Shown here in pieces: positions 6,486 through 46,641 of a stretch of DNA of 64,000 nt. Numbering within the stretch: the stretch's first letter is position 1; the number at the start of each line of letters is the position of its first letter. Source of the stretch: Candidatus Omnitrophota bacterium (GTDB lineage: Bacteria > Omnitrophota > Gorgyraeia > B26-G9). Location: positions 3,614 through 67,613 of the forward strand of contig JBDRPX010000003.1 of NCBI GenBank assembly GCA_043826565.1, in the 5' to 3' direction. The notes beneath the pieces were generated by a model. That model was not told the origin of the DNA. It saw only the letters and a program-made list of their open reading frames with translations, and did no database searches. The position numbers and the translations under genes were made by a program.

Positions 6486-6494
6486 TAATAAAGT

Positions 6495-6967: not shown

Positions 6968-6978
6968 AGAACCATTCT

Positions 6979-6997
6979 CTCACCCCCGGGGTGAGGG
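6979..6997. repeat. GC-rich palindromic element CTCACCCC-C-GGGGTGAG(GG)
   Basis: Inverted repeat between the PilZ stop (6967) and the next gene. The same CACCCCCGGGGTGAGGG 17-mer recurs at 63982-63998. Confidence 0.6.
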
Positions 6998-7029
6998 AAT
7001 GGTTGGTAAATCAGGAGGAAATCAGGTTA

Positions 7030-9669
7030 ATGCGTGCTCTGAATTTGAAAAACAGGATGTGTTTCAAAATTACAGCTTTTATTATTTTACAGGTGTTTCT
7101 ATTGTCCAGTACAGTAGGCGCAGCTGGGTTGGATCATTTTGCAGTTAATGATCGCGCGGAGTGTCTTGCGCCGTCTGTGCGTTTGGATAACTCTCTGCTT
7201 ATGGATGTGTTTAAAAGAGCGTCGGAGCAAGGTACTGGGCTAGGGGTATTCTCTATTGAGTCAGAAGATATCAACACGGAAGTTGCTGAAGGACTAGTAA
7301 ATTCTTCAAAACAGGCAGCTGACGAGGGAACTTCCGGGCCGAATAATAGCGGGCAATCAGTTAATGGGACAAACAGTGCTCCCGGGCAGATGTTTTTTGG
7401 CAGCGGTAATCCGGAACAAATTGAAGAGCCGATCTGGCCGCCGCCGCAAGCAGAAGCGATCGTTGTCGGCAATGGAAATAATTTCGGCTTACCTTATTTG
7501 TGGAAAAAAGATGAAATGATCAAAGCTTTAAGAGCCTATGGCTTGGCTTGTAATTGGGATGAGTTTTCCCGGATGGAACTGCGCAGCCTTTTAAAAACAT
7601 TAGGAGAATTAATTGAAAAAGACGGTACTTTTGCCGCGAACTTAGCCGCGGTAAAGCCTTTGGCAGTAACCAGAGGTTCTTATTATGTTAATAAGGGAAG
7701 AAAAGACAGTAATCAGCTGGCAAAAATAGTGCAGAGTAAAGGCGAAACCCGGTTGGTATTGTATAAGCCTTTCTTTTATCAATTGATGTTCATGCCGCAA
7801 AACCGGCAGATGAAAAGAGAAGCTTTACAGCAGATCATTGGTGATTATGCGGAATCAAATTTATTTTTTGATAAGCCGCAAGCTAAAGGTAAAGAGGAAC
7901 AGCCAGTGATGGTTTCTTTTAATGATTTGGAACTTATGTCTGCTGCGGATGGTGACGCGAAATTAATAAAGATCGGAGTTCCGGAACATATGATCCCGAT
8001 CACAAAATATATTGTCTACAGATTAAAGCAGTATCGTGACCCGGCACCAGAACATCAATGGCAAAAGGGATTTTCCAATGTACGGATAGTTCGGGCGCCG
8101 GTTTTTTCCCTTAATGTTTTTGAAGCAGCTTTAAAAGAAGCTAATGTGCCTGCAGAGCATATCGATAGAAATCATATAGAAGAATTGTGTGAACTGATCA
8201 ATAAAGAGATGAAGGACCGGAAAGAAACGAGACTTGAGGTAATGTTTTTTAATAGCGCATTGCGAGTTGTTCCGGCGATCAGTCCTTTAAATGATAAACA
8301 AAAAGAAATAATTGTTAATTATTTAAACAGGGCAATTAGTGAGTTAAAAGAATATGAAAAACGTTTTTGGGTTGTTTGGGAAAAGCCGCGGGAAGACGGT
8401 GACGGCACAGAAACTGTTTTAGATATTTATGTGGATAAAATCCCTTATCTTTATACTCTTTCGCAGGATTGCCTGAAATATCCCGGAGCTCCGGATGGAG
8501 CCCGGATCTGGCGCATTGATCCGGCAAACACCGCAGAGCCGGCTAAGACATTATTAGATTTGGTGCTTGACGCATCTCTGGCTCCGCATGAAGGCGGTAA
8601 ACACGGGCACGCGATGAGAGTTCCGGTTGCGCAGGGAAGCGGTGATGCTTTAGCTATTCCCTGGGATGAGATCGAAGACGCGCAGGATCGGGAAAAAATG
8701 CTTATGGATTTCTTAGTAAGGATCGCGAAAAGAGATTGGCCGCAAATAATTCTGGATGTTTTTAAAGGCCCGCATAAATGGGTACCGGCATTAAATGCTA
8801 TTGGCAATGCTTTAAAACAAAAAGGCCAGGGCCCTTATTTGCCGGGGCCAAGGCCTATTACCCAGTCAATAATCAGAGAAGTTCAGGCTAATGCCGGAGT
8901 ATTTCATGAATCCGGGATCATGGGCCTTGCGGTCGGGCAATGGTTTTTCCATGTTTATTGCGCGGATGATATCGGCCGGATACACGCGAACAATAATATT
9001 GATTATTATTTGGCTACGCGCTGCACATTTTTAGATGCCAAACAGCGTGATGAGGTAAAACGCTGGGTAGTTAAAATTAATAATGCCCACCGCAGTTTAC
9101 TGGGGCAGAAACCGCAGGAATTAAACATTGTATTTGATACTGATGACGGTTATCTGTTTGGGACGAAAGTTCCCACAAATAGCGGCGGGCTGTTTGCGAA
9201 TTTAACAAGTAGAAAAATCGGAACAGGAATGTTTTCTTTACTGGCAAGTATTTTTACGCTCAAGAGTATTTTTGGGGTTCCGGCTGCGGAAGCGGCAGTG
9301 CCCGGAATTGTTAAGGCAGGATTTGCCGGTTCCGGAGGCTCATTACTTTTCGCTGTTGGAATTACTCTGGCGATTGGCGTTCCTCTGGTGATTATTGTTT
9401 TTTCCAGAAGATATCTAAACAGCAGAAGAGTTTCCCTGGCTTTGCGTGCCGGTATTGGCGGGCCGGTAGAATATACTGCTGGTAATAAATATCCTCTGGG
9501 AACAGGATGGGGGGATATTATACCGGCTAATAAAGATATTATTAGCGCAACAGCAGCAGCAGCCAGCGCTTTTGTCCGAAAAAGAGGATCAATGGTAACT
9601 CCTCCGGTTGATAATGGTAGTGGAGTCGGCAGCCGTAATACAGGTGTTTTGATAGAGTCATCAATTTAG
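7030..9669 (+). CDS. Leader-family membrane or secreted protein (about 880 aa) with a C-terminal TM anchor
   Basis: The ORF track starts at GTG 6991. I prefer ATG 7030, which has AGGAGG 11 nt upstream and aligns the leader (KNRMCFKITAFIILQVFLLSSTVGAAG) with the other family members. ECLAPSVRL motif follows. A hydrophobic stretch lies near the C-terminus (LLFAVGITLAIGVPLVIIVF). Confidence 0.6.
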   Translation: MRALNLKNRMCFKITAFIILQVFLLSSTVGAAGLDHFAVNDRAECLAPSVRLDNSLLMDVFKRASEQGTGLGVFSIESEDINTEVAEGLVNSSKQAADEGTSGPNNSGQSVNGTNSAPGQMFFGSGNPEQIEEPIWPPPQAEAIVVGNGNNFGLPYLWKKDEMIKALRAYGLACNWDEFSRMELRSLLKTLGELIEKDGTFAANLAAVKPLAVTRGSYYVNKGRKDSNQLAKIVQSKGETRLVLYKPFFYQLMFMPQNRQMKREALQQIIGDYAESNLFFDKPQAKGKEEQPVMVSFNDLELMSAADGDAKLIKIGVPEHMIPITKYIVYRLKQYRDPAPEHQWQKGFSNVRIVRAPVFSLNVFEAALKEANVPAEHIDRNHIEELCELINKEMKDRKETRLEVMFFNSALRVVPAISPLNDKQKEIIVNYLNRAISELKEYEKRFWVVWEKPREDGDGTETVLDIYVDKIPYLYTLSQDCLKYPGAPDGARIWRIDPANTAEPAKTLLDLVLDASLAPHEGGKHGHAMRVPVAQGSGDALAIPWDEIEDAQDREKMLMDFLVRIAKRDWPQIILDVFKGPHKWVPALNAIGNALKQKGQGPYLPGPRPITQSIIREVQANAGVFHESGIMGLAVGQWFFHVYCADDIGRIHANNNIDYYLATRCTFLDAKQRDEVKRWVVKINNAHRSLLGQKPQELNIVFDTDDGYLFGTKVPTNSGGLFANLTSRKIGTGMFSLLASIFTLKSIFGVPAAEAAVPGIVKAGFAGSGGSLLFAVGITLAIGVPLVIIVFSRRYLNSRRVSLALRAGIGGPVEYTAGNKYPLGTGWGDIIPANKDIISATAAAASAFVRKRGSMVTPPVDNGSGVGSRNTGVLIESSI

Positions 9670-9688: not shown

Positions 9689-10054
9689 ATGTCAGATAAA
9701 GAAAGAAGACAATACAAAAGAATTAAAGTTGAAAAGATTGGGGCGGATTACCGTCTTGTTGACCCTAATTTTTGGGCCCAGTCCAGAGCGCAGGGGAAAA
9801 ACAGTTTGCAGGATATTAGCCTTAGCGGAGCATCGTTTAATACCGGAGATATTTTGCCGGAAGATTCTGTTTTGGATTTAAATCTAAAATTGGGAAGTCT
9901 GATAAATATTGATGGGATTTGCGGCCGCATTGTCCGCGTACGAAAACTCACTAGCGAGAATTTTGAAATTGGGGTTGTTTTTTCCTGGTGGGAAAGAGAA
10001 GAAGATAAGCAAAATCTCGTAAAATTTATGGAACAAACCGGAACTAAACAATAG
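9689..10054 (+). CDS. PilZ-domain protein (putative c-di-GMP receptor), 121 aa
   Basis: ERRQYKRIKVEK (RxxxR) and DISLSGASF (DxSxxG) motifs. C-terminal VFSWWEREEDKQ motif. Confidence 0.7.
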   Translation: MSDKERRQYKRIKVEKIGADYRLVDPNFWAQSRAQGKNSLQDISLSGASFNTGDILPEDSVLDLNLKLGSLINIDGICGRIVRVRKLTSENFEIGVVFSWWEREEDKQNLVKFMEQTGTKQ

Positions 10055-10067
10055 AGCATCCTGAGAG

Positions 10068-10101
10068 GTTCCGCGAGCGAAGCGAAGCGCAAAAGCGGAA
10101 C
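10068..10101 (+). terminator. Candidate hairpin after the PilZ gene
   Basis: GTTCCGC (10068-10074) / GCGGAAC (10095-10101) 7-bp stem with a 20-nt loop and no U tract. Weak. Confidence 0.25.
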
Positions 10102-10369
10102 AGGTTGCCCGCAATCCGATGGTGCGATTTCAACACATCCCCTTCCTTTAATTAGTCTATTATAGAAACAAATTTTTTAGTTATTTGTGATGAATTTGTG
10201 TTTTATTTTAAAAATTTCTTTTAAATATAATTTTTTAAAGTAAAATATTTAGTTAAGAAAATAACGCATTTTTGGGCAAGTCAAGAAATGACTGGTTTTA
10301 GCTGATGGGATATTTTCGTAACTCCTCTATTTTTAGTTAGTTACATTCCGAAGAAAACTCAGATTTTTT

Positions 10370-10398
10370 TTGACACCCCCCACTTTTTATGATATACT
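10370..10398 (+). promoter_or_regulatory. Sigma70-like promoter for the giant gene
   Basis: TTGACA (10370-10375), exact 17-nt spacer, TATACT (10393-10398), with an AT-rich UP-like tract upstream. Predicts a leader of about 150 nt before ATG 10552. Confidence 0.6.
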
Positions 10399-10551
10399 AT
10401 AAATGTGTTAAAAAAGTAGGAAAAAAATAATATAACTTGTTCAAAAATAAGGTAATTACAAAAAACATATATAGATTTTTAGTTGACTGATTAAAGAGCT
10501 GGTAATTCAAATGTTTATTGATTAAATTGAGTGTTATGAAAATCAGGTGAT

Positions 10552-13500
10552 TTGATGTATTACTCAAACAAAAAATTCAGTCTCGGTTTTAAAATAATCG
10601 CTGCGGTGATTATCCAGGCTTTTTTGGTGACTGATATTGTTTGGGCTGCCGGTGGAGATCTCCGCTGGATAAATGATCAGGAGAATACATCACGCTCGGC
10701 TTCTAAAACTTCCTATCTTGCGCCTACCGCAAATATTAACAAAGGCATATTCCGCACAAAATTTGATTTAGTAGTTTCGCTTATTAATGCTATGGAGAAT
10801 CGGGATAATACGGAACTATTGGCTAAACATGGAATTAATGTGTTTAGTGAAAATGTCCTCTCTATTCAGGGTGAAAAAGAAACACTTTATATTTATGATC
10901 GGAATGCTGAGGGTATTCCTTTGTTCATAACCGGGGCAGAGCAAAAGATTATATTTAATGGGTATGTGATTTCTGCTGTGCCCAATGAAAATGCTGATGC
11001 GCAAAGTCTGAATGTTCCGGAGGGTCAGGCAAGTGTTCTGAGCCGGCGTGAATTTAGTGATAAGCTTAAAGTTTTGGAAACGCAGGGAAAGGACTTTAAT
11101 CAGGAGGAGGCTCTGGAATTAGTAAAGCAATCAATACTTTTAAGCGGGCTTACCGGTGGGCAGTGGAAGGATGAAAAGTGGGTTATTCAGAAAGATGCGA
11201 TTGTCTTGATGCAGAGCGGTATGGTTGTTCGGATGCCGACTTCTGCGGGTAAGACATTTGTATTTAACGGTACCGGGATATTAAGAAGCCTGGCCAATAA
11301 ACTAAATCCGGATGCGCAAAGGGAAGTATCTATTGTTCATACTGAAGAAGGCTTGATTGAAAGAGACGCGAGAAATGCCGGAAAAGTAAATGGCCGTTTC
11401 GGGCTGAAAACAGGATATGTTGTTTCACGTGATGGTAAAAGAACAGCTTATTTTGTTGATGCTAATGGACAGGAGCAGGAAACCACCGAGCAGGAGCTTT
11501 ATAAAGAAGCAAATATCGTTTATGTGAATATTTATAATTTCATCCATCGTTTTTTGGATGACCGGTTTACCGCCAGAAAAGCCGGGGATCAGGCTTTACG
11601 CTGGGGAGAGCAGACTTATTTTGTTGCCTTTGACGAAGGTGATGTTCCATTAAAGCACCATGTTTCTACGCCTTGTATAATTTCCGGAGGAGAAACCCTG
11701 AATGCGGATGATCTCGTGAAGCGGGCGGAACAGCTGCTTAAGATGCAGGAAATCATTGATCAGCTTATTCATGAAGGACTCTTGAATGAAGACGGAACCA
11801 GGGCCGAAAATGAATTAGCGGAAGTTAAAACTGGTTCTCAGACCGCGACTCTTACGAGAAAAGGAAAAGCCTGGCTTAAAGATAAACTTCAGCAGGTAGA
11901 GCAATACAAAAATAATCAAGGTAAACAATCTATTTTTGCGGATGATGCTTTATGGGAAGAGCATGTCGAGCAAGCGCTTTCCGCTTATTTATTTTACCGT
12001 AAAGGTGAAGCCTATAATATCTCCGAGAATAATGAAATCGTGATCATTGATAAAGATACCAGCGGTATGCAGTTAGCCGGAAGGCGCTGGAGCCATGGAC
12101 TTGATATTGCGGTAAGGTTAAAAGAAAACAGAACCAGAGATGAAAACAGTAAGCTGGAAATTAAACCTGACCAGATGACGATTGCTTCCATGATGCTTCC
12201 GGAAATCCTCAGCGATACGTTGGGACTTGTTTCCGGAATATGCGCGGCTTCGGCGACGATCAATAAAGATACCGCGGATATGTATGGTTTGGATTTTAAA
12301 TCTCTTAGCGGTGAAGCTTCCAAAAGAACAGAGCGGGTAATTATGAGTTCTGATCAGGCTGAATCAGCGCGGAATGCGCTTAAGGCAATTGATGTTCTAA
12401 AAGCGGGAGTTGCGGCTGATGAATCAATGCAGGATTGGGGCCTTCCGGAAAAATCAGGATCGGTATTAATCCGCTGTGATGGAGAAGTGCAGGTTCGTGA
12501 GTTTGCCGATTTGCTTATAGCAAATACTCAGATGAAGGGCCGGAATATCCGGCGGATTACTCAGGATGGGAAAATACTTGATGCCAGCGGCAAAGAAGTT
12601 CCGGGAATAACTATTGATGATCTTGATTCTTTGGTTAGTGATGAAACAATTGATAATGTAATAATTGAATTTACTTCCCAGAATCGCGAAGTGCCGGCGG
12701 ATGGGAAAATGCTTAAAGATCGGATAGAAGATCTTTCTCAGCATCCTAAAGTTATAATTGTATCCACACACTTAGCCGGACGCGGAGTTGATTTTAAGGG
12801 CGATGATATGGTGGTCATGTCTTTAAGCGCTGACCCGGCTGAAGAAACTGATGTGCAGTTGAGAGGCCGCGGCGGCCGTGACGGCAGAGTGGGTTACTTT
12901 TTCGGATTTTGGTCAGTCCAGGATGCGGTATTTACAAAATATACAAGTCTGGTTAATGAAGAACTGAAATATTTCACCGCTAAGGTTAAACCCGGACAAA
13001 CGCATACTTTTGAGATCACCAATGATAGTAAGACCGCGGGTGATAGTGAAAAAACTGTAATGGCAATGCGCGAAATAATAAACGCGCATAATCAGAATAT
13101 GCGGCGCGCGCAAAAAGCTTTTGGTGAATTATCATGGAATGAGGGGGATGAAAACGGTTTTGGCGAAGGTTTTGCCAGAACGCACTCCAGAGCCAGAGAG
13201 CGGATCATTTCTAAAGGAATAGAAGGATTAAATATTCCGGAGGATGTTTTAGCCGCGATCAAGACTAAAATCAGCAAGGTTGTTAAACAGAAGCGCAAAA
13301 CTCTTACCGGGATACCCAGCTCGGCAACGGTTATTTCGATATTAGAAGATGAGTTTGGGTTAAAGAATGTTGATGCTGATATTGCACAGCAAGCATTAGT
13401 TTCGGCACAATATAACCTGGAAATGGCTTTATTTACGGTTATTGCTGATGTGCTTCAGGCTAGAGCATTACAAATCGTTGATCAGCAATGGATGCGTTTT

Positions 13501-16500
13501 GTTACCGATTCAGAATACCAGAAACATCGGCTGGAAAAAGCACTGGCGAGATCGGGATATCGGAGACAGTTTATTCCCCAACAGCAGTTTGATTCGGAAA
13601 TAAGGCTGGTCATTACGGAAATTTTTGAACGGATAAATAAGGATACCAAACGGCGGCTGGGTGAAGGGGTTATCGGTCTGGCTCATCAACTTGCGGATAA
13701 AACTCCTACGGATACGGAAATGTCCGAAGCTAGCGCTGCCGCTCAACCAGACCGTGTCCCGTTTACGGCGCGCATGAAATTATTGGCATTAAAAATAATT
13801 CCTTCGGCAGTTATGATTGCGGCTAATGTCGGTCTGGCTTATGGACTGGGCTTAGTATTTAAAGGACTTACTTTAGGCGGGGTTGAAGCTGCTTCCGGAT
13901 TACCCATAATCGGAAATTTGATTACATTACTTCTCGGTTTGGGGCCGGTGGCACTTGTGGCGATTACTATTGGTACGATAATTATTGCCTGGTCACTTAA
14001 TTCTCAAATAAAAAGATTATCACAGGTTGATTCTACTATTGCGAAGATGGCTGAAGCTATTTCCTTGGGGCATAGGAAAAAAGCTAAAGAATTAGGAGCA
14101 ACGGTTGTTACTTCTTCATGGCGTAAAACTCTTACGGTTACTGCTACTTTCGCGCCGCTGGTCGCGGCCATGACTCTTTTTTCACTTTTAGGTTCTGCTC
14201 CTTTTACCGCGGGAAGTGTGGGAGTTATTGTCCTGCTGGCTTCAGCGGTATTAGGTATAATAAGTGTTGTTTCTTCCGGATTGCTCTTGGCGACTTCACG
14301 TAAAGATATGAAAAATGCCCCGAAACTTCCCATGACGGCAACAAAAAGATTTTTCCGCGGAATGATCGGAGGAGCTTTAACTATTTTAGGTATGGGAGCA
14401 TTTTTGTTCGCTTCCGGCGGCACTATGGGGCTGCCGATTCTTGCTGGTATCGCGGCGATTATTGCCAGCGGGTTTATTGCCCGTAAAATATTCTCTATAA
14501 GCAGTGATGATGTGGCCGCGAAAAAATGGGTTACTCCGATGGGTTTTGTCGCGGGTATCGCGGTCGGACTGGGAATTATTTTAGGGGTGGTCCCGTTCTT
14601 TGGCGCTCAGGTTTTTGAATCGATGACTACAGCAATGCAGACCGGAGCTATGCCCGGAGGCGGAGTGCTTAAGGTTGTGGGATATCTGGTAATGGGATTG
14701 TTTGCTTTTCAGGGAATAATGTTTGTTGGAGCTCAGCGCTATGCCGCAAAAAGAATTGCCGGGCAGGAAGGCGGGCTTACCGGAGAAACAGGACAGATAA
14801 AGCGTAAACAGCTGGGCTACATGATCAGAGCCTCAGCACTTAATGCCCGCATGGTCATGATCGCTGTCGGTGCAGTTGTCGGAATAGCTTTGCTGCTTAC
14901 CGGAGCATGGGTTGCTCCGGTTGCCGGATGGGGAATCCCGATGTGGGGCGCACGATTACTCGCTGCTTTGCCGGTGATGGCTTTATTTAGTGCCTTGGGA
15001 TTTGTTTTGCAGCGTTTTATTACTCGGGCATTAGATAAACCGGTAAATTATTCCTCTCTTGCCAAACGAAAAAGAAAAGATTTTCTCAGTATCCAATCGC
15101 AGTTAGAAAAGGTTGGCCTTAGAGATTTTTCAAATAATATCGGCGATGTAGTTAATGAATTTAAGAAGGATGTTGCTAAAACAAATAGTCCTTTGGAATT
15201 GGCTTATCAAAAGCTTGGCGGTATTTCTTCGGAAGATAAGCTTTTTCAGGCATTTCTTAATGAACTGCAGAACTCAACGCCTAATGACGGAAGATATTTT
15301 TCTCAGGCAGAGATTGATCATCTGGTTGCCAAAATACCGGAGGCATTATTAACTGCTCAACAGCGCCCGGTTTTCCGAAAAGCCGTTACCGCGGTTTTAG
15401 TTGAACTTAATCTGGCTAAAATCGGATTCGATAGATTATTCTACACTGCTTCCAATCCGGAAAAAATCACCAAAGGAATGAATTCTTTTCTTATGCCGCT
15501 TATGGGCACTTCTATGCTTGTGGCTGCTCCGACTGCTGCGGCAGTTGCCCAAAGCCAATATGCCGGAGTTCCCTATACTAATGTTGAGGTCAATGTCGCG
15601 GAAGCTCCGCAGAAGGTTCGGGATTACTATAGCACTTTAGCGGGGAAGATGTTTGAGACTGTTCCGGCAGAAGAAGATGCTGATGCCCAGGTTCTTCCAC
15701 AGCAGGGAACGATTGATTGGGGGACACAGGTTGAATCATTTACAGCTAAGCAGATAATCAGCCGGATAGAAAAAGACGCGGCGGAAAAATTTAATGCGGA
15801 TATTGAGCAAGCGCGGCAAGAAGCAGAACAAGCGCAGACCGAACGTGAGAAAATAGCGGCTAATCTGAAATTAATGGAGCTTGTTATTAACCGCAAGAAA
15901 TTTATTTTAGACCAGATTGATAAACATGCGGAGGTTACCGCGGAAGATAAACAAAAAGCAAAAGATATTTTAACCGATGTCAGCCGGCTGGAGGCACTTA
16001 TCCAGTATCAGCAGATGATTGATATGCGGGAAGAGATCCTGAATAACCAAAAAGAAAGACTGGATAAACTTCAGAAACAATTAGCTGCCGCAGCGGATCA
16101 GGTGCAAAAAGATATTCTAACGAAAACAATAGAAGATCTTAAAAAACAAATCCAGGAAGCAGAATTGACGGTTACCAGACATCGGGAAGCCTATGCAGCA
16201 CAGGCACAGGAAAAAGGAATCGATCCGCTGCTTTCTACTAAAGAGCTTACCGATCAAAAAGACCGGATGATTGCTTCGGTAATTGGTATTCCTGCCTACA
16301 TTATTAAATTGTCACAGGAAGTTGAAAGAATATTAAGTTCACAGCAGATGCTTAAACAGCAGGAAGAATTGTTGAATCTAAGGGAACAAGCCGAAGCTGA
16401 GCGTAAGAAGCAGGAAGCTGCTGAGCAAGCCAGAAGAGAAGTTGCGGAAAGAGCAGCAGCGGTAACCAGAGTAGATACGGTAACCGATGGTTCCGGACCT

Positions 16501-19500
16501 CCGCCGGAAGATAAAGAGCCGGCAGTTACACGGACAGATCCTGTTGCCGGGCCGGCTCAAAGAAGAGATTTTTCCGTGGCAGAAGTAAGCAGTGCTTATT
16601 TGAATAACGGCTACAGTCCGCAGGATGTTTCCGCTATCCTTAATACAGCAGATGCTCCGGCAACCGAAGCATTCCAGGGAATAATTCAAGCAAAAGGTGT
16701 GGCCTATTCTAAGCAGGCAATCCAGGATTTAATAAACGGCGGTTATAAAGAAGCGGATGTCTATGCCGGGGCAGTTACCGAACTTCAAATCAGAGGCTAT
16801 AATGCCGAACAGATCGTAATATTACTGCTTGATCCTGTAACCGCGGGCACAGAACCTACTGCCGAGCAGATGGAAAGAGCAAAGCTCTTAGCCGGTATAT
16901 TACTTAAAGGAGTAACCGAACAGAATAAATTGCGCGCGGCATTGGATTCTCTAATATTAATTCCGGAAAGATTAGGCGTTGATAGTCCTCCGGTTCAACT
17001 GGGAGCAATGCTTACCGGCCGGCCGTCGCTTAGTGATGTTTCTCTAAAAGCAAAACTTGACGCGCTGCAGCAGAAACTTGATAACAAAGAAAAAATCACA
17101 CAAGGTGATATTGACAGTGCTTATGATTTAGTCGAGAGAGTTCTTAAATGGCGGGTTGCTGAAACCGCATTAAAAGACATGGCTAGACAGCGGCAGCAGC
17201 AAAGGGAGCAATCAGCATCAACATTAGTTGCTCCGGTTGATGCTACAAATATTCCTCGGGCCATAATCGTAGATGAAGACGCGGATACGGTTACTATTCC
17301 CCGGGCAATAATTGTCAGCGAGGATTCAGATAATATTACTATTTCGCGAAAGAGCATTACCGAGGCTTCTCTTCCGGAGTTACCGGCATGGGGGCCTCAG
17401 AATGAAGGGATTTCAGATGTAGGAGTTTTACCGCCAAAAGACGCTATTGGTTCGGATAATATTATTATTCCCCGGGCAATAATTGTCAGTGAAGATGCGG
17501 ATACGGTTACTATTCCTCGGGCAATAATAGTTGAAGAGAATGCCGTGGCTAGCACTCCTCAACCGGATGCAGAACATATTGTCCGAAGCGGAGATCGTGT
17601 CGGTGAAGTCATGGTTGACCTGGCTTCGAATCCTACGCAGTGGCAGGCGATTGTAAATATTTACAATAAATTTGCGCATGATAATCCGCAATTGGGATTA
17701 AAATTAATCAGAGTTTCCGATGGTACTTCCGGAGTTAATATTTCCTGGGTCAATCCTGTGGATGCGGTAAATACTGCCGCGGGCTTGACCGTGACTTCTT
17801 TAGCCGATCAGCTTGCCGGTAAAAAAGCAGTTACTGCGGCAGATTTTGGTATTAGCCTGGATATTGACCTGGTGATTCGCATTGAAAGCAATGCCGACCC
17901 GCGGGCGGAAAACGCTAAGAGTAAAGCCAGAGGGCTGATGCAGATAATGAAAGAAGGAGCATTAGCCGATTGGAATAAATATCATCCGCGGGAACAGTAT
18001 TCTTTTGACGATATGTGGGACGCGGATAAAAATCGGAGAGTAGGCAGTTGGTATCTAAATCTAAGAATACCCCAGATGCTCCAGGCTAGTAATAAAGAGA
18101 TCACTTTGGAAAATATTTTATGGGCTTACAATGGCGGGATTAAAAAGGTGGTTGACGGTGTCCTTCCTAATGAAACCAGAGATTATATTAGAAAATATAG
18201 AGTCGGCCTAATAACAACCGCGGATAATCTTACGGACCGGATTACCGATCTTCTGGTCAGCAATGATATTAGAGGATTGATCCAGGTTGCCAGCGGTGCT
18301 AAGCCCGGGGAAGTCCTCGCAACTACAGCGGCGGCGCCAAAAGAGGGAACAGCAATAACTCAGGCTAAACAGCGGCTTTTAGAAGCTGTGGGGCGTTATC
18401 AGGAAATGGAACAAAGGTATCAGGAACTTGAACTGGAATATTCGCGTTACTTTGATGTTATTCAAAGCGGCGCGTATTTTCTGGATCTTAAAAAAGGTGT
18501 TATTGATGTTAATGCTGTAGCCAAGCTGAAACTGCAGTTGGAAAAGCTAAAGAAAGTTGATCTGGAATTTAGAAGAACCCAGTTGGAATTTATTCAGGAT
18601 TCTCTGGAGGCCTTAGAAGCGGAGATCAAAAAGCTGGAAGAGTCCGCGGAAACTTTACAGAGCAATGATGATATTCTGAATTCTTCCTTAGCCAGACTCC
18701 AGGAACAGATAGAAGAAACCGCAGCTAATATTACTTCTGCCGGAGTACAGATAGAAAAACTAAAGAGTTCATTGAAATTGTGGCAGCAGGCGCTTGCGGA
18801 TGTTAAAGCCGGGAAAAAGGTAAACATACCGCAATTACTGGGAATGGTCAGAGAAGAAGATAAAATATATGCCCAGCAGGTTGCCGCGGCGAAAAAAGGA
18901 GATGTTACACAATTAACCGCGGAGCAGACGAGATTGGGAATTGATCCTGATCGCGCTTTGATTATTACTAATGTACAAATTGATGCTAATGCCGTAATCC
19001 TGAATCAGGCAGGGATAGATATTAAAACGCTTAATTTGATGATCGCGAATAATCAGTGGCTAGTTCATCGTTTAGGTGATCGTGTCGAACTTGCTCCGTT
19101 TGCCGGAAGTTCTCCGGTCAAGATTGAATATTTTATTTTAGGACACAATTTAACACCTCTGGCCCGGGAAAGTGCTTTTAACACGGCGATCACCTATTGG
19201 GAAAAACAGCTCGAATGGGCAATTGCCGATATTCAATATCTGCAAAATATACGGCTTATTTCTCCGGAAGTTTCCGATGAAGAAAAGAAAATCATTCAAG
19301 GTCAGGTAAGTAATCTTCGGGATAAAGTGCAATTTGCTGAAGCTACGATCGCTGATCTTAGGGGTGATCTTGATTATTGGAAATTATCCCCCACCCAAAG
19401 AACTAATGCCCGGGCTCAGCTTGCGGTAAGGAAGTTGAAAGTAGTTAAAGGGAAAGTTTCCTTTTTTACCGACGTGTTAGCTTTGTTGAAGGATATGGAA

Positions 19501-22500
19501 GCTTTTGGCCGGAAGCAGGCCCAGGAAGGAGTAGATTACTGGCAGGTTGAAATAGATAAAGCGATAAACGAGCTTAATTTCTTAAATACAAAGATGTCAT
19601 CTTTACAAGCACAGCTGGCGGCGGATCCTACTAATGAAATGCTCAAGAAACTCATACCTATAGTTGAGCATCAGATCTCCAATAAAAAATTATATAAGAC
19701 TTTTGCCGAACATTCAAAACGGGATACGGAAAAAAATCTGGCTTATATTACTTCCGGCGGTATTGGTGAATCGCGTGCCGCGATCATTTCCCGGTTTAAA
19801 GCTCTGGCTGCCGAAGGGGCTGTTTATTATGAAGATACGACATCTTTAATCACCACCATGCTGCAATACCAGACCCTGGAGATTGATACAGGTATTGCTT
19901 ACTGGACAAAAATGAGATCTGATTCAGCTACCCGGTTAGAGCAGGTAGAAGCATATTTACAGGATTTTAATATTGATAATTTACCACTTGATCATCCGGA
20001 TAATATTTTCGGCGAAGAAGGCATCCCGGTTTCAGTTGACCGGAGAATGGCTTTGCAGCAGGCTATTCTTGATCCTAATAATGAGGCCAAAGATGCTCAG
20101 GGTAATTTTGTTTCCGCGGTCAAAGCTAAAAAATGGGCCCAGGAACAGCTGGCGGTTTTTGAACAGAGAATTACCGATGAGATGGCGAAGCCGGAAGCAG
20201 AAAGAAATCAAAGCAATTTGACTTTATGGCGCGCGGAAGTCCAAAAAAGGAAATTATATATTGCGAATGCCGATACGCAGATCAAGAAAGCAACCATATA
20301 TGTAAATACTCTGGGAATGCTTAAAGCTGCCTATATCGCGGAAAGGACATCCTTAGAATCATTAATTCCTTTATCTCGTTTAGAGCTTGATTCATTGGCA
20401 AAAAATAAGGCCTATGTATTAGGATCATCTTCGGAAACCGACGCGCAGTTTATTCAGAGAAATATTGATCTTATTAATGAAGAATTAAAATTTTATCCTT
20501 TAGCCAGACAAGCCGCGGCTTTGAAATTGGAATGGCTGGATAAAATTAAGCAGGATGCCGCGGTTATCCTTGGTGAAATATCTCCTGATACTCATTCTAC
20601 AATTGCCGCACTTGTGGCTGAGCATGAAAAAACAAAAACCGAACTTGAAAAACAGCTTGCTGAGGCGCAGGAAGGATTGCGTCTGGTCCAGGCTGAGATT
20701 AGTCAGGGCATGGCTTGGCTGGATAAACTGAATAACCGTGATCATGATGTCTTAACCCGTTTGCGGGAAAGACAGGAAAGCCGCCTGGGTCAGCTTGAGC
20801 AAATGATTCGCGCTAAGGGCAGAAAAATATATCAGGCTAATCTGATTAAAGAAGCGCAGCGTCAGATCGGCCAGGAAATTGAACGCTTAAAATCTTTAGG
20901 GGTCAGTGAGATCGCGATCGCGAACATAACCCGTAATCAGCGAAATGATAATTTCCCCATGGTTTTAGATAGAGCTTCGTTAGAAAAGTTTGTCCGTGGC
21001 CTTACCAGCAGTCCGGATGCTCCGCAGGATTTATTAAAGATAGCTCAGGAAGGTTTTACTCCGTCTAATGCCCGGGATATCTTAGCGCAGTTGGGATTGT
21101 CTTTAGAACGTATGGATCTAGGTGAAGATTATTATATTGTTACTCATCTTGGTTTTGGCGGGGAGTGGCAGGAAATGTACTTACGCTTAGGTAACTTCTT
21201 CGGTTCCCATAAAAATATTCAGGTCAGCCCGTTCATTTACACAGTGGAAGCTACGGAACCGCGGCGCGGTGCTGAGGGTATGGGATTGGTCATGGATATT
21301 ACCCCGGAAAATAAACCGATTTATTACGGTTTGGTAGTTGATATTTATAAACCAAAATATCAGCAGCTGGGCTGGGATTATTCCATGACCGAAGAAAAGG
21401 TCCGGTTAATGATCACCCAGGATTATACCATGCTGATGATGCCGGAAAAAGATGAAACCGGTAAACCGACCGGTGAGTATCGCGCGTTTGTCGGCGCGAC
21501 CATGTTCGCGGATATGCCGGCTAATTTGCAAATGGGAGAAGACCTTACAACGATTGGCGGTACTTTGCGCGCTGATCTAAAACTTACCGAAGCATTTAAG
21601 CTTAAAGGAATTATTTCCGGAGCAAGGATTATTGATCCGTATAATAAGAGATTTGAATGGGAGTTTGGGGATCAGCAATTATTCCCGGATGAAGTAAGAC
21701 GTTACGCGGCAACTGTTGAAGGACAGGAAATGAGTATGCTTTATGAACGCCTGGCCTTAGAAGTGGATATGTGGAAGCTTTTGAAAAAGAGCGGTAAACA
21801 GGTAGATACTGATCCGGCAAATAAAGAAAAGCAAGAGCGTCTGGATGCACTGGAACATCAGATCGGTAATATTAATCTGTTCTTAGAATTAGCAAAAGCA
21901 TTGCAGGATCCCCAGCAGGCAGCAACAGATCAGACTCAACAAAGAGCGAGAGAATATTATGCGGATACCACTGCTTTACTGGCTGTTTTGCAAAAGAGCA
22001 AAGATAAAGAATTACAGCCGTATATTGCTTTCTGGAAGAAACAGCAGGAGATCGCTTATATTATTAGTGAAGGTGGAAAACTGCCGCAGGAATGGACTGT
22101 TTATATGCAGGATGCGCAGACTCAGCTGAAAGCTCTTAAGAAAGTTCAGGAAACACTTGATGCCGACTTAAACTTCCAGAGAGAATTTACCATGCAGTTC
22201 TTTGTCCAGAATGAAAATAATACTGAAGGATATGATCAGGCTTCCGTGGGTATTGGGGTGGCTCATTCATTCCGCTGGAATCTGGTCGCTCCGATAGAGA
22301 CAAGAATTGCCGCAGAAGGCGCGGTTGGACAGCAGATGAATCAGGCGAGTATTGAAGTAAATAACCGTATCGGCGGTACTGACGGGGTTGATGTCGGTGT
22401 CCGGGCCAGCAGAAGAGGCGAAAGAAATACTTATATGTTTAGAGTGGCTAAGAAGGTTCTGGGTGTGGACTTAGCCGCTACTTACGGAGATCAATACGGA

Positions 22501-25500
22501 AACGGCCAGCCGAAACTTGGTATTGAAGCCCGTCAGAGAGTTGAAAAAGATGATGTGTTCCGGCAGGCCATAGGTGTTGCCGAAGATATCGACAGAGTAA
22601 CCAGCGGTGTGGATAAATTAAGAGAAAGCGAAGATGCTTTAAGCCGCGCGCTTGTCTATACACTGCGGAACAATTCACAGTTTTATGACACGATGATCGA
22701 AGCCCGGAAGAATGTTGTCGAAGGGTTTAGCCGCTGGGTAGCTGCGGTGGAAGCCCGTTACGGCGGTTCTATAGACACCGCTCAGGTGGAAGCGGAAATT
22801 AAAAAGCGCTTTTCTATTGATCTGGGCATTGATTTTACTTTGGAGCGCCGGGGAAGCCGCGAAGGGGATGAGCTGGCTTTGATCAGATTAAAAAGAGGTA
22901 TGGATCAGAGCAAAATCGTGATGCGCGATGCCATGAACGCGGTGACAAAAGCATATATTGATCTAGTTCAGGCAAAAATGGCTTATGAAGCTATGGATAG
23001 TTCCCGGGTGCGGGAATTGATCGCCGGGTCGGATAGTGAACAGGCTGTGCGCAGTTTGCAGGCGGAGACCACCAGATTAAGGACCGAATTTGAATTGCGC
23101 CGGGGCGCGTTTATCCGGTTGACTGGTATGTCGGAAAAAGAAGTGGATACGATCGTCGCCGCGGTTCCGAAAGTAGAAGTTCCGGAACGCGATGTTCCCA
23201 AAGTTATGGAAGTAGTCAATAAACAGATCCAGATCATGACGGCTCAGTGGGTACCCTTAATGCAGAGCGTGGAAGTAAAAGCGGAATTAAAGAAAGATTC
23301 TTTCCTGCGCAAATTATTCTTCTGGATTCCGGTCAAGAAAATCACGGTAGGATTTAATCCTTCGGATACAGCGTTCCAGATCGGTGATTTTGGTGTGCGT
23401 ATGAGCATACCGCTTACAGTTTATGAAGACGGAGCGGCAAAGAAGGAACGAGAACTTCCAGTTACCGTAGAAGGAAGAGCTTTGACCAGAGAGCAAAGAG
23501 ATTATATTCGGCAGTCCCAGTTTACTATGGGGGTTCTTCCGGAAAAAATGAGACTTACGGATATTACCTTAGGACAATTACGGCAGAGTGAACCTGTGGT
23601 TTTAGGAAGCTTGGAGAGCGCGGTAACCGCATATAATAATGTTCTTGCTTCCAGTGAAACAAATATATGGAGTCAGTTTGAACAGGCATCACGTGCTCTT
23701 TTTGAGAATATTAATCTCACCTTAGATCAGGCAGCTTACAGATCACATTTAGAAAATGAAAGAAAATATTATGAAACACTCCTGCCGGATAAAGACCGGG
23801 AAAAATTAGCTGCTGCGGTAACTCAAGTTACTTCTTCGCCGGCAACCGGTACAAATTTAGAAGAGATATTCAGAACTCACGTTGCTCCGACAAATATTAG
23901 TTTGGCTAATGCCCAGGATAAACTGGATATGGCTCGTCAGATACAGGGGGCAGGGTCTTCCAGTTGGTTTAAGGAATTAGTTGTTGATATCGGCCCGGGA
24001 ATTAGTGTGGGTAAGCCGACGGTATTACCGAGCGTGAATTTGGTTTTTGACCGGGCTCCTCAGGAACGTACTGCTCAGCGCGGATTAAGATCTCTCAGCC
24101 GGGAGCAGGAGACAGCTGTTGTTGCGGCGGAATTAAAAGGACGTTTCTTAGTGGCTTATTTAGATTATAAACGCGCGGAACAGTATCTGGCGTATTTAAG
24201 AAGCCAAAAATCTGATCAACCGACGGTGATTGCTGAGATCGGACAGGTGGAAAGAAATCTGGTGGAACGTAAAGCCGCTTTAAATTATATGCTCGGCCAG
24301 CCGTTTGACGCGGAAATTAAAATCAATCTTTCCTATGCCGAGGTAGAAGGGCAGATGGAAGCGTTATTCGGAACTTCTTTTGATAAGACAGTCTTAGAAG
24401 AAGAAGTTGCCCGGATTAAGATCAGAATTTTAGAAAAGCAATTAGAGATATTGGAAAAAGGCGGTACGGTTCGTCTGGATCTGCCGATTTCGGAAATCAT
24501 TGCTTCGGTTTCTTCGGCAAACCCCGGGCCTTTAGTCTGGTGGGCCGGAGTTAAAGTAGTTAACTGGTTTGTCTGGACATTCAGCGGAGCTAAAGAAAGA
24601 AACGAATCTGAGCAGAGGCAGTTAGTCAATAATGAAATTGCCAAAGCCCGTACGCAATTACAGCAGAGTATTACATTCGCTCAGGTATATAAAGCTCAGG
24701 CGATATCTGATACCGTATATGCCGACGATGATTATGAACAGGCAAAAGCCAGAGTGAGCACACAATTGTACGGTGTTTCCGATGCCGCTGCTGATCCGAA
24801 TCGAACACGCGGTTCTCCGGGACAGGTGCGTATGAGTATTGCTGGTTTTATCGGTAAAGTTGTAGAAAATGATATTCAGGTTACGATTGCCTTTAACAAC
24901 TTAGAATCGGCAAAGCGTGGTACCGGAGTAGATATTATCCCTTCAGTCCGGCCGCGCGGTTTTGAAGAAACCGGGATGAGATTTGGTTCTGATACGACTC
25001 TTTATACCGGCGTATTAGAACTCTTTCCGAATATCGAATACACTTACTTAAGCGATCAGCAGCGATCAGTATTAGAAATTAAAGCAACCGAACGTTTATT
25101 CAGAGCGGCTGTTGATAAAGCCCGTGCGGAAGCCACTTCACTTTTATACCAGCTTGCCTTGATCAATGATATTAGACAATCAATTCCGGGAAGTCAGGAT
25201 ATGGAAGCATTGATTAAACAGCAAAAAACCCTGGAAAAACGTTTAAAAGAATTAGCCCGGGTTGCTCCGGAAGCAGATTTGCAGATCGTGGATATGAATA
25301 CCTTGTCTTTGCAGACACTTGATTATTCACAGGCACAGATCGATGCGATGTCTGTTCCTATTCAGACCGCGCCGGAAATAGAGGCCTTGCAAGCCAGAGT
25401 TGATCAGCAGGTCATTATTGTTAATAATTTATTGAGAAGATTGGGCACTGTAACTCCGCGAACCTTGATCGCTCATATCGGCGGCGGGGATATCAGTGAT

Positions 25501-28500
25501 TTTGCCATGGGGCAGTATTTTGAAATACCGCGGGCCGCGGATATTGCCGATCAGATCCGGCCGCATGTTTACCGGATGATGGAAGATAAACTCCAGCAGG
25601 AAAAATTAACAAATAATCTTACCGCGGAAATACGGACCGCGATCAGTGACCTGAATGCCTATATGCAGCGCATGATCACCAGTAAAGCGGCGATGATGAG
25701 TTTCTACCGGGAATATTTAGCAAGTTTACAGCAGGTCAAGGATAAGCGGCTTACACAGCAAGAGCTTCAGGCTGCGGTTGATCAGTTTACCCGGCATCTA
25801 AAAGCTTATCTGGATAATGTCAATGCTTATCAGACCCGGTTCCATCATCTAAGCGCGGCTTTGAACATGGCGGGTATTGATACAGATACGCTTAGTTCGG
25901 GAACCCCGGCTGTATCCATGACGTCAAAACCGCGTTTCTTTGAATCATTACAGAGACTGGGAGTTAAAGCGGAAGATCAGCAGCGTTTGCTTTCTCCGGA
26001 AGAAGTCAGCACCAGTTTAAAAGCCGCGGAAAGTGATATTATTGTGCAGTTGAGACAGCTTAAAAACCAGATGCATGGAGATAGACAGCAGGTCATGGAG
26101 CTTATTATCGCCAGATATGAAGATATGCTCTCGGCATATCCTGTGGTGGTTAATTCTGTTTTAACTAAAGATGATTATTTTGAAGTAACCGATGAATTTG
26201 TCCGGGTTCAGATTATTCCTTTATATGAACAGCTGGTAGATATTGCTTATGATCAGGCAACGCCTTATGCGGTGCGGCAGAAGCTGGTTAAACTTATCGG
26301 CGAGGATGTTATTAAATACAAAGTGTTATTACGCGAATACCCGCGTGAAGTTGCCCAGGCGGTAATGGTTGAAGATACAATAAAGAAAATATTTGCCAGC
26401 TATAGTTCTCTCATGGGCCAGCTTGTCAGGGGCAGGGCTTTGACTGCCGGACAGCAGGCGGAATTGCAGGATGAGCTTGATGCTTTAAAACAATGGCAGT
26501 TAATTAGTCCGGTGTATAAAAAGCATAATATTGATAAGCAGGATTTACAGAATAAGATTGATGCGGAGCGTATTCTTTGGAATGCCGGTATCCGCCAGAC
26601 CACGATGAGTAATGAAGCTAATCTTCCTGACGCGGAAATCCCGCCGCATTTAGACGCGACTTTGCAGCCGGTTTATGAAACTCCTTTACAGATGATCCAG
26701 GCGGGAGTTCGTAAGGATGAATTAAGTGACCAGTTAAGAACTCAGAATTTTGACCTTGCGGTTGTGGATTGGGCCAGAGGAAACCGCTACAGCGTACTTA
26801 ATTACTTCAGATCGGTCGAAGAATTTGAAGCTTATCTCGCGAAGCATAAATTAAAAATGGAATTTTACGCGGAACTTTCTCCGCTTGAAGCGGCGGAAAA
26901 TCCCCTGGGCCGGGGCGCCAGACTATCCCGTTTTGAACTTGCTCCGCTGGAACGAAATAATATTTCTTATCAGGTATTTATTGTCAGAGAAGACGGAACA
27001 ACTCTGGGCAAGGTTGAATTCAGCAGTGAAATGCTTAAAGATAAGATCGAAAAAAAGCAGGCCTATATCCGGGCTCAGCATGCTCAGGCAGACCAGATGC
27101 TTAATGCCGGTTATGCGGTGCAGATGAGTACAAATCCGAATTATCCGGGATTCTGGGAAACTAAAGTTAGAGATTGGCAGGCCGCGGAGATCATGCCGGA
27201 AGTTGATCTAAAGGATAAATTACCTAAACTTAATGAGCAGGGTTTCCCGATTTTATATCTGGTTACTACAGATGCCCAGGGAGTACAGGTCAAGATCGAA
27301 ATCGGTGCGTACCGTTATATCCAGGGTAAATTGGTGGAAGTTAATCCGGATGAAGAAGATGTTAAATTTATCATTAAATCAACCATAAAGAATAATGACC
27401 CGGAAACCGGAGATCTGATACTTTTCGGAGTTAAGGCTATAGAAAGAAGAATCGCTCTGGTTACTTATGGTGAATATCTTACCCGGCTAAAAGCGATGAA
27501 TATGGCGGATTCAATTAAAGCCGGGGAACTGTGGAAAAAATTTGAAACTCTAACTCCCTTATTCGGGGCGATTACCGAAAGCTATCAGGCGGTCGGTGTT
27601 TCCCGGGTTGGGTTTAATCTGTGGATGGCTTTAAGCGGCTTAGGTTTGCCGAATACTCCAAAAGAAGAAGATATCCTGAATTTCTTTAAACAGAAATGGG
27701 GCGAAGACGATTACGAAAAATTCGTAAAGTTTATCATGGAAGCGCCGAATCCTTCGGATCCGGAACACGAGAAAAAATTATACGAGCATATTAACAGAAC
27801 CCTAGGTTTAAAAACCAAGCAGGAGATCGCTTACGCGAAATGGGTTCTTTACATGGTTGATAGTATCGCGGAGAGCACCGGTAAGACCAGAAATGATGAC
27901 GGCTTATTAAAAGGAGTCTTCTCTTATTTCCGCGGCACAGAAATAAACTTAATGACAATTGCCGGAGATGTATTTAAAGTAACCGATGCTCAAGGGGTAA
28001 AATTCTTAGGTAGAGGGATTACTGCCAGTACCGAAGGATGGCAGCGTTTAGCTACAGCTTATGGAATAACTTTTGATGTTTCCAGTTTATTTGATGTAAT
28101 CCTTACGGATAAAGAATTCCGGGATGTTAATTATGAGGATCTAATCCGTACCTATGCTTTTGGTTATCCGAAATTCGGCAATCCTGCGGATCAGCGTAAA
28201 TATCTCGGTCAATTAATGAATTCTTATGCTTTTGGTATGACCGTAAAACGTGACGGCGGATTCTTAGGCATTGGCGCTAAGACCGAACATTTATTCGGCC
28301 GGGTTTATCAGGATAAAGATGAGTTTAATAGGGCGAATCTGCAAAGAGTCGGCATGATCAGGCTGGCTAAACTGGGAATTGGATGGCCGGTTTATATTAG
28401 CCGTACGCCCGCAACTAATCCTAATACCGGAGCAGTGGAAGTAAGAGAAGAGATCATAATATTCGGCTTAAGAGGATACCATGATAGGCAGACAGAGTTA

Positions 28501-46257: not shown

Positions 46258-46641
46258 ATGGGAAGAAGTAGTGTTATGGATATGATACAGGATAAACGTC
46301 AATGCAAAAGGCGGCGCACAAAATACGCGTCCATTAGTTTGCGGTCTCTGGACCCGCAGGCGTGGTTTAAGTTCTGGGGCGGCGCGGAGTGTTTTCTGCG
46401 TGATCTCAGTTTGCTGGGAGTGGGAGTTTACAGCCAGGAAAAGCTTCCTATCGGCACGCGCTTAAGCATTGACCTGCGTTTGGGAAAACAGGCCAGCAGT
46501 ATCCGGGTTTTCGGCCGGATCACCTGGACGGAAAAAGAGGATGATCAGTACCGCTCCGGAGTAAGCTTTTCCTGGTGGAGAGATGACCAGGATAAAAAAA
46601 TTGTCAGTAGTTTTGTGGAAAGACTTGGATTAGTTAACTAA
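46258..46641 (+). CDS. PilZ-domain protein (putative c-di-GMP receptor), about 120-127 aa
   Basis: KRQCKRRRTKY and DLSLLGVGV motifs. C-terminal SFSWWRDDQDKK. The start is ambiguous among ATGs at 46258, 46276 and 46282. Confidence 0.65.
   Translation: MGRSSVMDMIQDKRQCKRRRTKYASISLRSLDPQAWFKFWGGAECFLRDLSLLGVGVYSQEKLPIGTRLSIDLRLGKQASSIRVFGRITWTEKEDDQYRSGVSFSWWRDDQDKKIVSSFVERLGLVN

Follow-up and report, generated by a model that had tools for sequence, protein, structure and literature searches.

A giant Omnitrophota protein carries a divergent SecA-type module next to a conserved membrane block

How bacteria insert and export proteins of 10,000-150,000 residues is an open question in both preprints on the long proteins of Omnitrophota (West-Roberts et al. 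2023, bioRxiv 10.1101/2023.11.21.568195; Nielsen & Lui 2026, bioRxiv 10.64898/2026.06.07.730766), and it is raised in compact form by a 64,000-nucleotide stretch of a Candidatus Omnitrophota genome (assembly GCA_043826565.1, contig JBDRPX010000003.1, positions 3,614 to 67,613; hereafter the window). The giant open reading frame (ORF) of this window encodes a protein of 11,887 amino acids (aa) in which a region resembling the ATPase SecA lies between a hydrophobic leader and a block of membrane helices. What is a Sec-type motor doing within such a protein, and on which side of the membrane does it sit? The answer that we favour, with moderate confidence, is that the region is a complete, divergent SecA-type motor, tethered to the membrane, that exports the downstream part of its own polypeptide. 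The frame is uninterrupted from a TTG at 10552, from which it would count 11,888 residues, but the ATG at 10555 is the likely true start because a ribosome-binding site, AGGTGA (10541-10546), lies 8 nucleotides upstream of it, after an AT-rich spacer of about 500 nucleotides; residues are numbered from this ATG. A 13.5-kilobase piece of the window is recorded from sequencing run SRR26275510.

The SecA-like module passes the gathering thresholds of two SecA-specific Pfam models, SecA_DEAD (PF07517; E 9.5e-14, 51.8 bits with a cut-off of 24.6) and SecA_PP_bind (PF01043; E 8.3e-10, 39.7 bits with a cut-off of 23.5), and also matches Helicase_C (E 2e-5, 25.2 bits with a cut-off of 23.5); a match to P-loop_SecA (E 0.011) stays below its cut-off. 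In a sequence search of the PDB the ten best matches are all SecA (top E 1.8e-10), and NCBIfam SecA models match at up to E 3e-25. The equivalog level is missed, with 88.4 bits for TIGR00963 and 80.9 for NF009538 against cut-offs of 814 and 800, and the SecA2 models remain far under theirs (TIGR03714, 61.8 against 930; TIGR04397, 52.7 against 1085). As judged from these scores, the module is a SecA homologue that is an equivalog of neither housekeeping SecA nor SecA2; its identity to canonical SecA is about 16-23%.

Alignment with E. coli SecA and 60 relatives places the whole set of motifs listed in Table 1, together with motif Ia (ERDARNAG) and motif III (ASAT). The PPXD signature GRRWSHGLDIAVRLKE corresponds to canonical GRRWSDGLHQAVEAKE, and the second nucleotide-binding domain (NBD2) bears large insertions. 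Walker A, Walker B, TPxIISG, GRGxD and Q.RGR..R.G are kept in the window protein and in its relatives, which implies use of ATP, and the module is on this ground probably an active ATPase.

Homology continues past NBD2 into a helical scaffold, a wing and a two-helix finger. When a profile of aa 820-1075, built with the two closest relatives, is compared by hhalign with residues 661-826 of E. coli SecA (probability 87.8%, E 3e-6), LQIVDQQW pairs with LQTLDSLW, and the SGY of the loop pairs with the fingertip tyrosine of RGY794. An AlphaFold2 model of aa 140-1075, computed from a 62-sequence alignment (mean predicted local distance difference test score (pLDDT) 88.2, predicted template-modelling score 0.89), has a C-terminal third made of long helices. 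In a Foldseek search of the PDB with this model the first 34 places are all taken by SecA or SecA2, in alignments over the whole target (E 4e-28 to 3e-16), the nearest conformation being that of SecA engaged with SecY (template-modelling scores of 0.71 for 5eul_A, 0.70 for 6itc_A and 0.68 for 3dl8_A), whereas the best match outside SecA, MDA5 (E 3e-8), is 20 orders of magnitude weaker than the top one. A generic DEAD-type helicase of superfamily 2 (SF2) is ruled out by the PPXD, TPxIISG and the two-helix finger, and SecA outranks every helicase match; the module is almost certainly a SecA homologue with the full core.

A preliminary description of this DNA, made from the letters alone, had assigned aa ~200-790 (interval 11150-12920, aa 199-788) to SecA rather than to helicases in general. 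The searches above uphold that assignment, which also stands on its Walker motifs, as these are not degenerate; the comparison with SecA folds that it had proposed is the one reported above, and the PPXD, whose absence it had named as decisive, is detected. Two details change. SecA homology runs on to about aa 1050, and, although every hallmark motif that it had named is there and lines up with canonical SecA, the first reads LMQSG....M.TSAGKT and not L.QG.

Compared with canonical SecA (E. coli, PDB 2fsf; B. subtilis SecA-SecY, 5eul and 6itc), the module shares domain order, fold, and catalytic and SecA-specific motifs. However, it is not a free soluble protein, being internal to the giant ORF and preceded by the leader and an N-domain of about 130 aa; in addition to the NBD2 insertions, it differs in having no C-terminal linker and zinc-finger tail, its finger helices running instead into the first transmembrane (TM) helix at aa 1076. 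A further difference from accessory SecA2 (the SecA2/SecY2 system of Gram-positives; mycobacterial SecA2, PDB 4uaq), besides the scores given above, is that the motor forms one covalent chain with its presumed cargo.

The membrane block that begins there (block 1) is conserved in two relatives (P0001 and P0003 among our homologues, numbered with the prefix P), and its basic residues are very unevenly distributed: lysine plus arginine (K+R) amount to 37 in 169 residues of the loops and flanks on the SecA side, as against 1 in 55 on the opposite face. By the positive-inside rule, this 37:1 bias places the two ends of the block, and with them the SecA module, in the cytoplasm, and the motor is probably cytoplasmic and membrane-tethered. 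Of the two arrangements that the preliminary description had offered, a cytoplasmic ATPase tethered to its membrane block is thus the better fit, being consistent with the charge bias, the conserved motifs, the recurring cassette and the SecY-fused relatives described below, and an exported ATPase is disfavoured. Its count of twelve helices gives way to ten clear ones and a weak candidate (aa 1646-1665).

Between block 1 and this candidate lies a small helical linker domain, also conserved in P0001 and P0003, that is the best-predicted part of a second AlphaFold2 model (pLDDT 70-86). The candidate segment itself, LMPLMGTSMLVAAPTAAAVA↓QSQYAGV, is rich in alanine and proline, carries an AxA-like cleavage-type site and is conserved in P0003; its hydrophobic stretch comprises aa 1646-1665, and aa 1646-1668 may be either an eleventh TM helix or a cleavage site. 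If it were cut here, the protein would be divided into the motor-plus-membrane cassette and the remainder. Coiled coils occur in the ~6,900 aa that follow, up to the next TM helix, as does an SLT lytic transglycosylase domain; this stretch would be extracytoplasmic on condition that the weak segment is membrane-spanning, in which case an ATPase inside and a murein-cleaving SLT domain outside would make a sensible arrangement. About 100 residues before the SLT domain are four copies, in two pairs, of IPRAIIV(D/S/E)E(D/N)(A/S)D..TI (aa 2233-2326; 17251-17532).

The association of motor and membrane block recurs among relatives. A HMMER scan of 1.84 billion representative proteins returned 387 at E<=1e-3, the close relatives among them all being fragments from metagenome-assembled genomes (MAGs) of Candidatus Omnitrophota; homologous-protein searches gave almost nothing (P0001, P0002 and P0034), and a scan of metagenome contigs found no relative. 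The product of the giant ORF is a long membrane protein of Omnitrophota type. In at least 13 long Omnitrophota proteins (P0001, P0003, P0005, P0006, P0007, P0010, P0011, P0013, P0014, P0018, P0021, P0053 and P0149) a SecA-like domain is followed some 150-250 aa later by a block of 5-11 helices, whether the domain lies at the N-terminus or thousands of residues in, and because of this recurrence SecA-like domain and membrane block are regarded as a conserved cassette. Between block 1 and the post-SecA blocks of distant relatives only weak colinear matches are found (P0006, E 0.03; P0010 domain, E 0.008; database of 151 sequences), which are no more than suggestive of homology, and Pfam scans of P0005, P0006, P0010, P0011, P0014, P0018 and the giant ORF of another locus, L003, detect no SecY among their TM blocks.

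A second subfamily (L003, P0009 and a further locus, L006) has a SecA domain far nearer the canonical one (PF07517, E 3e-68); a single TM helix, oriented N-in by its more basic N-terminal flank, comes next, and thousands of residues follow it. The motor of either subfamily stands directly upstream of the place at which a very long stretch would cross the membrane. In L006 a 330-aa leader-bearing ORF (10001-10993, P0079) and an overlapping one of 2,503 aa with SecA_DEAD and Peptidase_M23 (10954-18464) appear to be a single gene split by a frameshift, L003 reading EIEWRAAQEGFDVKTLRELK where L006 has ELQWRVEQEK and, across the break, GDVKSLKAL; the cause may be an error of sequencing, or the frameshift may be real.

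Two metagenomic, unannotated proteins, P0067 (1527 aa) and P0155 (1619 aa), have the same leader as the window protein and, further on in the one polypeptide, a bona fide, full-length SecY domain (PF00344 matched over its whole length at E 3.6e-36; E. coli SecY as phmmer query, E 3.5e-24) and then SecA_DEAD and PPXD. Both end at a contig edge, and other members of their clusters are binned as Candidatus Paceibacterota. Like them, the window protein combines this leader, SecA_DEAD and PPXD, and a multi-helix membrane domain, but theirs is a recognizable SecY upstream of the SecA-like domain, whereas the 10-helix block lies downstream of it and has no SecY similarity. As an independent line of evidence, the fusions assign these modules to protein translocation.

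Taken together, these observations suggest a mechanism in which the SecA-like motor, held permanently at the cytoplasmic face by the fused 10-helix block, would act as a dedicated Sec-type motor that drives the ~6,900 aa lying downstream in its own chain through the cytoplasmic membrane. Translocation would begin at the signal-anchor-like segment aa 1646-1665, deliver the coiled coils and the SLT domain, and proceed either through the housekeeping SecYEG or through the fused block. That the module serves as the motor for self-export is the part of this picture that we put forward tentatively; homology, fold, intact catalytic motifs, conservation of the cassette and charge asymmetry are direct observations, whereas sidedness, ATPase activity, substrate and export route are inferred from them.

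Several points weigh against this picture. At the level of the motor, Pfam SecA_SW gives no match in the scaffold and wing region, and the hidden Markov model (HMM) of the canonical SecA C-terminus does not match the window protein directly, although it matches P0003 (E 1.5e-6) and P0001 (E 8.6e-4). Sidedness is predicted from hydropathy and positive-inside analysis of the sequence, and the parity that puts SLT outside and SecA inside depends wholly on aa 1646-1665 spanning the membrane, with a Kyte-Doolittle (KD) hydropathy of 1.51. Block 1 matches no Pfam family at E<=10; phmmer with E. coli SecY or with the SecY domain of P0067 finds no match in the giant protein; hhalign gives the block a SecY probability of 0.1-0.2%, with shallow profiles; and the AlphaFold2 model of aa 1050-1680, from four sequences, is unusable as a fold model (pLDDT 50.7). 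A sequence search of the PDB with the block yields only chance matches to CD47. Its ten helices and cytoplasmic ends do match SecY, but such a count is not specific to SecY, and a role as a channel, for which the preliminary description had called the block channel-like, is not supported by any of these tests. Finally, the leader has the form of a Sec signal (basic n-region, h-region, VWA↓A), which would place aa 35-1075 outside.

This last conflict calls for a closer view of the leader, which the preliminary description had rightly noticed as a hydrophobic segment with a WAAGG cleavage-like site (aa 14-34, with VWA↓AGG at aa 29-34). By inspection it shows a KK..K n-region, an h-region IIAAVIIQAFLV and a c-region TDIVWA↓A with small residues at -3 and -1, that is, the form of a signal peptide. 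Its sequence is nonetheless conserved in the manner of a domain: a module of about 75 aa runs from a basic n-region through the helix IIAAVIIQAFLVTDIVWAAGG, DLRW and a spacer to an S.LAP box and an amphipathic helix, with an invariant aspartate in the helix, the LAP box downstream and a cytoplasm-type ATPase after it. Across proteins its consensus is (I/V)IQAFLxxDIxWAxGG, followed 10-25 residues on by an (S/T)L(A/S)P box, and 11 sequences agree without exception at F23, L24, D27, A31, G33, L55 and P57. Neither Pfam nor NCBIfam has a model for this family. The leader was also considered as a type IV prepilin or class III signal, which lacks support from a G↓FTLIE motif, as a twin-arginine signal, for which there is no RR, and as a double-glycine (C39) leader, from which it departs in that the acidic/hydrophobic spacing to GG varies among paralogues (WAAGG and WAGG); all three were rejected on inspection.

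If the leader were N-in/C-out or cleaved at VWA↓A, the ATPase would be outside, because no other hydrophobic segment precedes aa 1076, and this topology is contradicted by the 37:1 charge bias as well as by the conservation of the ATP-binding motifs. Three resolutions may be envisaged: the leader could be an N-out/C-in anchor, its C-flank carrying R and K in most family members; it could be inserted as a looped hairpin, with the conserved segment that follows it lying in the channel; or it could be a recognition signal that is bound instead of inserted.

The same leader heads three other ORFs of the window (Table 1; leader at 7030-7210, 46820-47030 and 62335-62560), the upstream one being detected by the leader HMM (E 1.2e-8) outside its training set; in ORF 3486-6485 only the box of the module is seen (3486-3700). 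It also heads ORFs beside SecA-like giant genes in L002, L003 and L006 (in L006 at 2719, 5056, 7736 and 10001), and the representative-protein search returned leader-only matches as well. Such a module, found on many different proteins around these genes and unlike the ordinary signal peptides of other window ORFs, which are mutually dissimilar, brings to mind the accessory SecA2/SecY2 system, which recognizes a special signal peptide and a motif in the mature region. By analogy, motor and fused block could form an autonomous translocase exporting clients that carry the leader and a LAP or TLSP box, namely the three leader-bearing neighbours and perhaps, in trans, the giant protein as well. 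The conserved cassette and the union of leader, SecY and SecA in P0067 and P0155 agree with this, but the membrane block has no detectable SecY similarity, the SecA2 models score far under cut-off, some leader-bearing proteins hold S-adenosylmethionine (SAM)-dependent methyltransferase or P-loop domains, which are not obvious export cargo, and a leader on the motor itself is awkward for an exporter of leader-bearing proteins. We consider this alternative unlikely. Less likely still is its strong form, an undescribed accessory-Sec-like pathway of Omnitrophota that is independent of SecYEG, with the leader as targeting signal for the giant protein and its co-clustered clients, P0067 and P0155 as an evolutionary link and the 10-helix block as a SecY diverged beyond recognition. 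Within an autonomous translocase, the leader of the giant protein could be loop-inserted in the channel and dock the motor permanently, much as engineered fusions of SecA to a substrate have been used to trap SecA-SecY complexes.

The textbook n-h-c form of the leader would instead be taken at face value if the protein were an exported ATPase or effector, with a cleaved Sec signal, whose SecA-like domain works in a prey cell, where there is ATP, and whose TM blocks enter prey membranes. Omnitrophota have been described as predatory or episymbiotic, and an action on prey envelopes has been suggested for their giant proteins; SAM- or nucleoside triphosphate (NTP)-dependent domains occur in other proteins with the leader; and DeepTMHMM classes 39% of 916 long proteins as having a signal peptide plus TM helices, with cytoplasm-type enzymes placed outside (Nielsen & Lui 2026). 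Nevertheless, the positive-inside bias argues for co-translational insertion in the membrane of the producer with the SecA side cytoplasmic, a folded ATPase of ~900 aa cannot pass SecYEG unless kept unfolded, the SecY domain of P0067 would be functional only with its ends in the cytoplasm, and an apparatus able to deliver a 1.3-MDa protein is not apparent; the proposal is therefore improbable. Weakest of all is the view that the module is a repurposed or relic domain (a structural clamp, a chaperone or a generic SF2 helicase-type ATPase) with no part in export, for its low identity to canonical SecA, long branches in the published phylogeny (West-Roberts et al. 2023), scores far below equivalog cut-offs and NBD2 insertions would all fit such a domain, but it retains every catalytic motif as well as SecA-specific elements that have no role in a nucleic-acid helicase (PPXD with GRRWS.GL, TPxIISG, and a two-helix finger with its tip tyrosine), conserved across divergent relatives and always beside membrane blocks, which makes it very unlikely.

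The preferred picture, of a cytoplasmic motor exporting its own downstream part, has precedents in the literature. Most giant proteins of Omnitrophota carry a divergent SecA_DEAD and PPXD, which form a separate long-branch clade in genomes with a normal SecA and SecYEG elsewhere, and the adjacent TM regions have been proposed as anchors, with the giant protein itself, or accessory proteins, as a possible export substrate; the loci contain PilZ, type II secretion system (T2SS)/pilin-like, sugar-import and glycoside-hydrolase genes, and SLT domains occur occasionally (West-Roberts et al. 2023). A cluster of 20 proteins with PF07517 architecture is found among the 916 long proteins of the second set (Nielsen & Lui 2026). 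The SecA fusion of Omnitrophota giant proteins is therefore already published, and the window protein is a further member: it is likewise multi-kiloresidue and multi-TM, has a very divergent SecA_DEAD and SecA_PP_bind, adjacent TM regions and an SLT domain, and lies among the same classes of genes. At 11.9 thousand amino acids (kaa) it is below the >30-kaa focus of the former study and within the >=10-kaa set of the latter. Unlike the published Archaeovorin and Dockerin types, in which TM anchors come first and the SecA domains follow close to the C-terminus, its module is N-terminal, directly after the leader and N-domain, and includes the helical scaffold/wing region and two-helix finger, not just motor and PPXD. 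Term searches of the text of both preprints found no full SecA core with a two-helix finger, no motor-plus-membrane-block cassette, no shared leader module and no leader-SecY-SecA fusions; the word leader is not mentioned in West-Roberts et al. 2023, where SecY appears only as a separate, non-syntenic gene, and SecY is absent from the text of Nielsen & Lui 2026.

The locus is a compact and complete 11.9-kaa example, in which a full SecA core and a conserved membrane block stand just upstream of the segment to cross the membrane. It makes the idea of a self-export motor concrete and testable, the first ~1,700 residues being a tractable construct, and the shared leader and the natural SecY-SecA fusions suggest that this lineage has elaborated the Sec system in its own way; if true, this would be a new accessory export route tied to a predatory or episymbiotic lifestyle.

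Table 1. Features of the giant protein and of its neighbourhood (window positions; aa numbered from ATG 10555)
Feature	Residues (aa)	Position	Strand	Basis or remark
Giant ORF, 11,887 aa	1-11,887	10555..46218	+	ATG and ribosome-binding site; nearest relatives all Candidatus Omnitrophota MAG proteins
Conserved leader module	1-80	10555..10794	+	K-rich n-region, helix IIAAVIIQAFLVTDIVWAAGG, DLRW, S.LAP box at aa 55-57
Divergent but complete ATPase module of SecA type (NBD1, PPXD, NBD2, helical scaffold/wing/two-helix finger)	~165-1050	11047..13704	+	
Walker A (motif I), MPTSAGKTF	227-235	11233..11259	+	aligns with SecA MRTGEGKT
Walker B, DEGD, then SecA-specific TPCIISG	360-363; 372-378	11632..11688	+	DEGD aligns with SecA DEVD
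PPXD inserted in NBD1, includes GRRWSHGLDIAVRLKE	~385-530	11707..12144	+	PF01043; alignments with E. coli SecA
NBD2	~590-800	12322..12954	+	Helicase_C match; alignments with SecA
AGRGVD in NBD2	741-746	12775-12792	+	matches SecA AGRGTD
Motif VI in NBD2, QLRGRGGRDGRVG	768-780	12856-12894	+	matches SecA QLRGRxGRQG (arginine-finger region)
Helical scaffold, wing and two-helix-finger region, with LQIVDQQW	~830-1050	13042..13704	+	hhalign, AlphaFold2, Foldseek
Fingertip RSGYRR	999-1004	13549-13566	+	pairs with RGY794 of E. coli SecA
Membrane block 1, 10 predicted TM helices, both ends on SecA side	1076-1487	13780..15015	+	hydropathy; K+R bias
Small conserved helical linker domain after TM10, predicted cytoplasmic	~1488-1645	15016..15489	+	K/R-rich flank
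Segment LMPLMGTSMLVAAPTAAAVA↓QSQ, candidate 11th TM or signal-like internal stretch	1646-1668	15490..15558	+	weakly hydrophobic, KD 1.51
SLT lytic transglycosylase domain	~2439-2532	17869..18150	+	PF01464, E 2.8e-10
Single TM, next unambiguous one after block 1	8553-8572	36211..36270	+	strongly basic C-terminal flank, out-to-in
Further TM blocks	8950-9313, 10013-10281, 10821-10876	37402..43182	+	hydropathy; no Pfam match
Upstream neighbour, ~880 aa, leader variant (ILQVFLLSSTVGAAG ... CLAPSVRL)		7030..9669	+	leader HMM
Neighbour, 460 aa, same leader (LIQAFLMLDFCWAGG ... HHLAPALQL)		46820..48202	+	
Neighbour, 492 aa, same leader (LIHAFLLLDIAWAGG ... CLSPMVQI)		62335..63813	+	
PilZ-domain gene directly upstream of giant gene		9689..10055	+	PF07238, E 1.1e-8
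PilZ-domain gene directly downstream of giant gene		46258..46641	+	
MFS_2 (MFS sugar transporter)		48431-49918		Pfam
GH2-like genes		49927-51822 and 54135-55421		Pfam
T2SS pseudopilin, N_methyl/T2SSJ		61479-62189		Pfam

The remainder of the locus is dense in lineage-specific proteins. No SecY-family match is found in the window ORFs scanned, nor are SecY2 or Asp genes seen in the window, and the four large ORFs at 15-9669 (539, 584, 999 and 892 aa) match no Pfam family at E<=0.01. Besides the two PilZ-domain genes that flank the giant gene, a 656-aa ORF (57374-59344) starts with a PilZ-like RRKYIRL motif. Near the C-terminus of the giant protein, two repeats of ~90 aa (aa ~11350-11440 and ~11730-11820; ~44600-44900 and ~45730-46030), each after a long coiled coil, share the consensus GITANALG.TVG.MAL.II.ERGANGAFTS..NFI.R.A..S.SSNARK.AAQIYN.L..QGI.F and match Pfam HHH_6 weakly (E 4e-4, below cut-off). 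Between two GH2/GH72-like glycoside-hydrolase genes sit three small paralogous ORFs (225, 216 and 218 aa; 51807-54044) with ordinary signal peptides and no Pfam match; the 216- and 218-aa products share GVFGVYYDRG.RNNH..PSGWMGD.GD, and the 225-aa one has SPSEWIGD.

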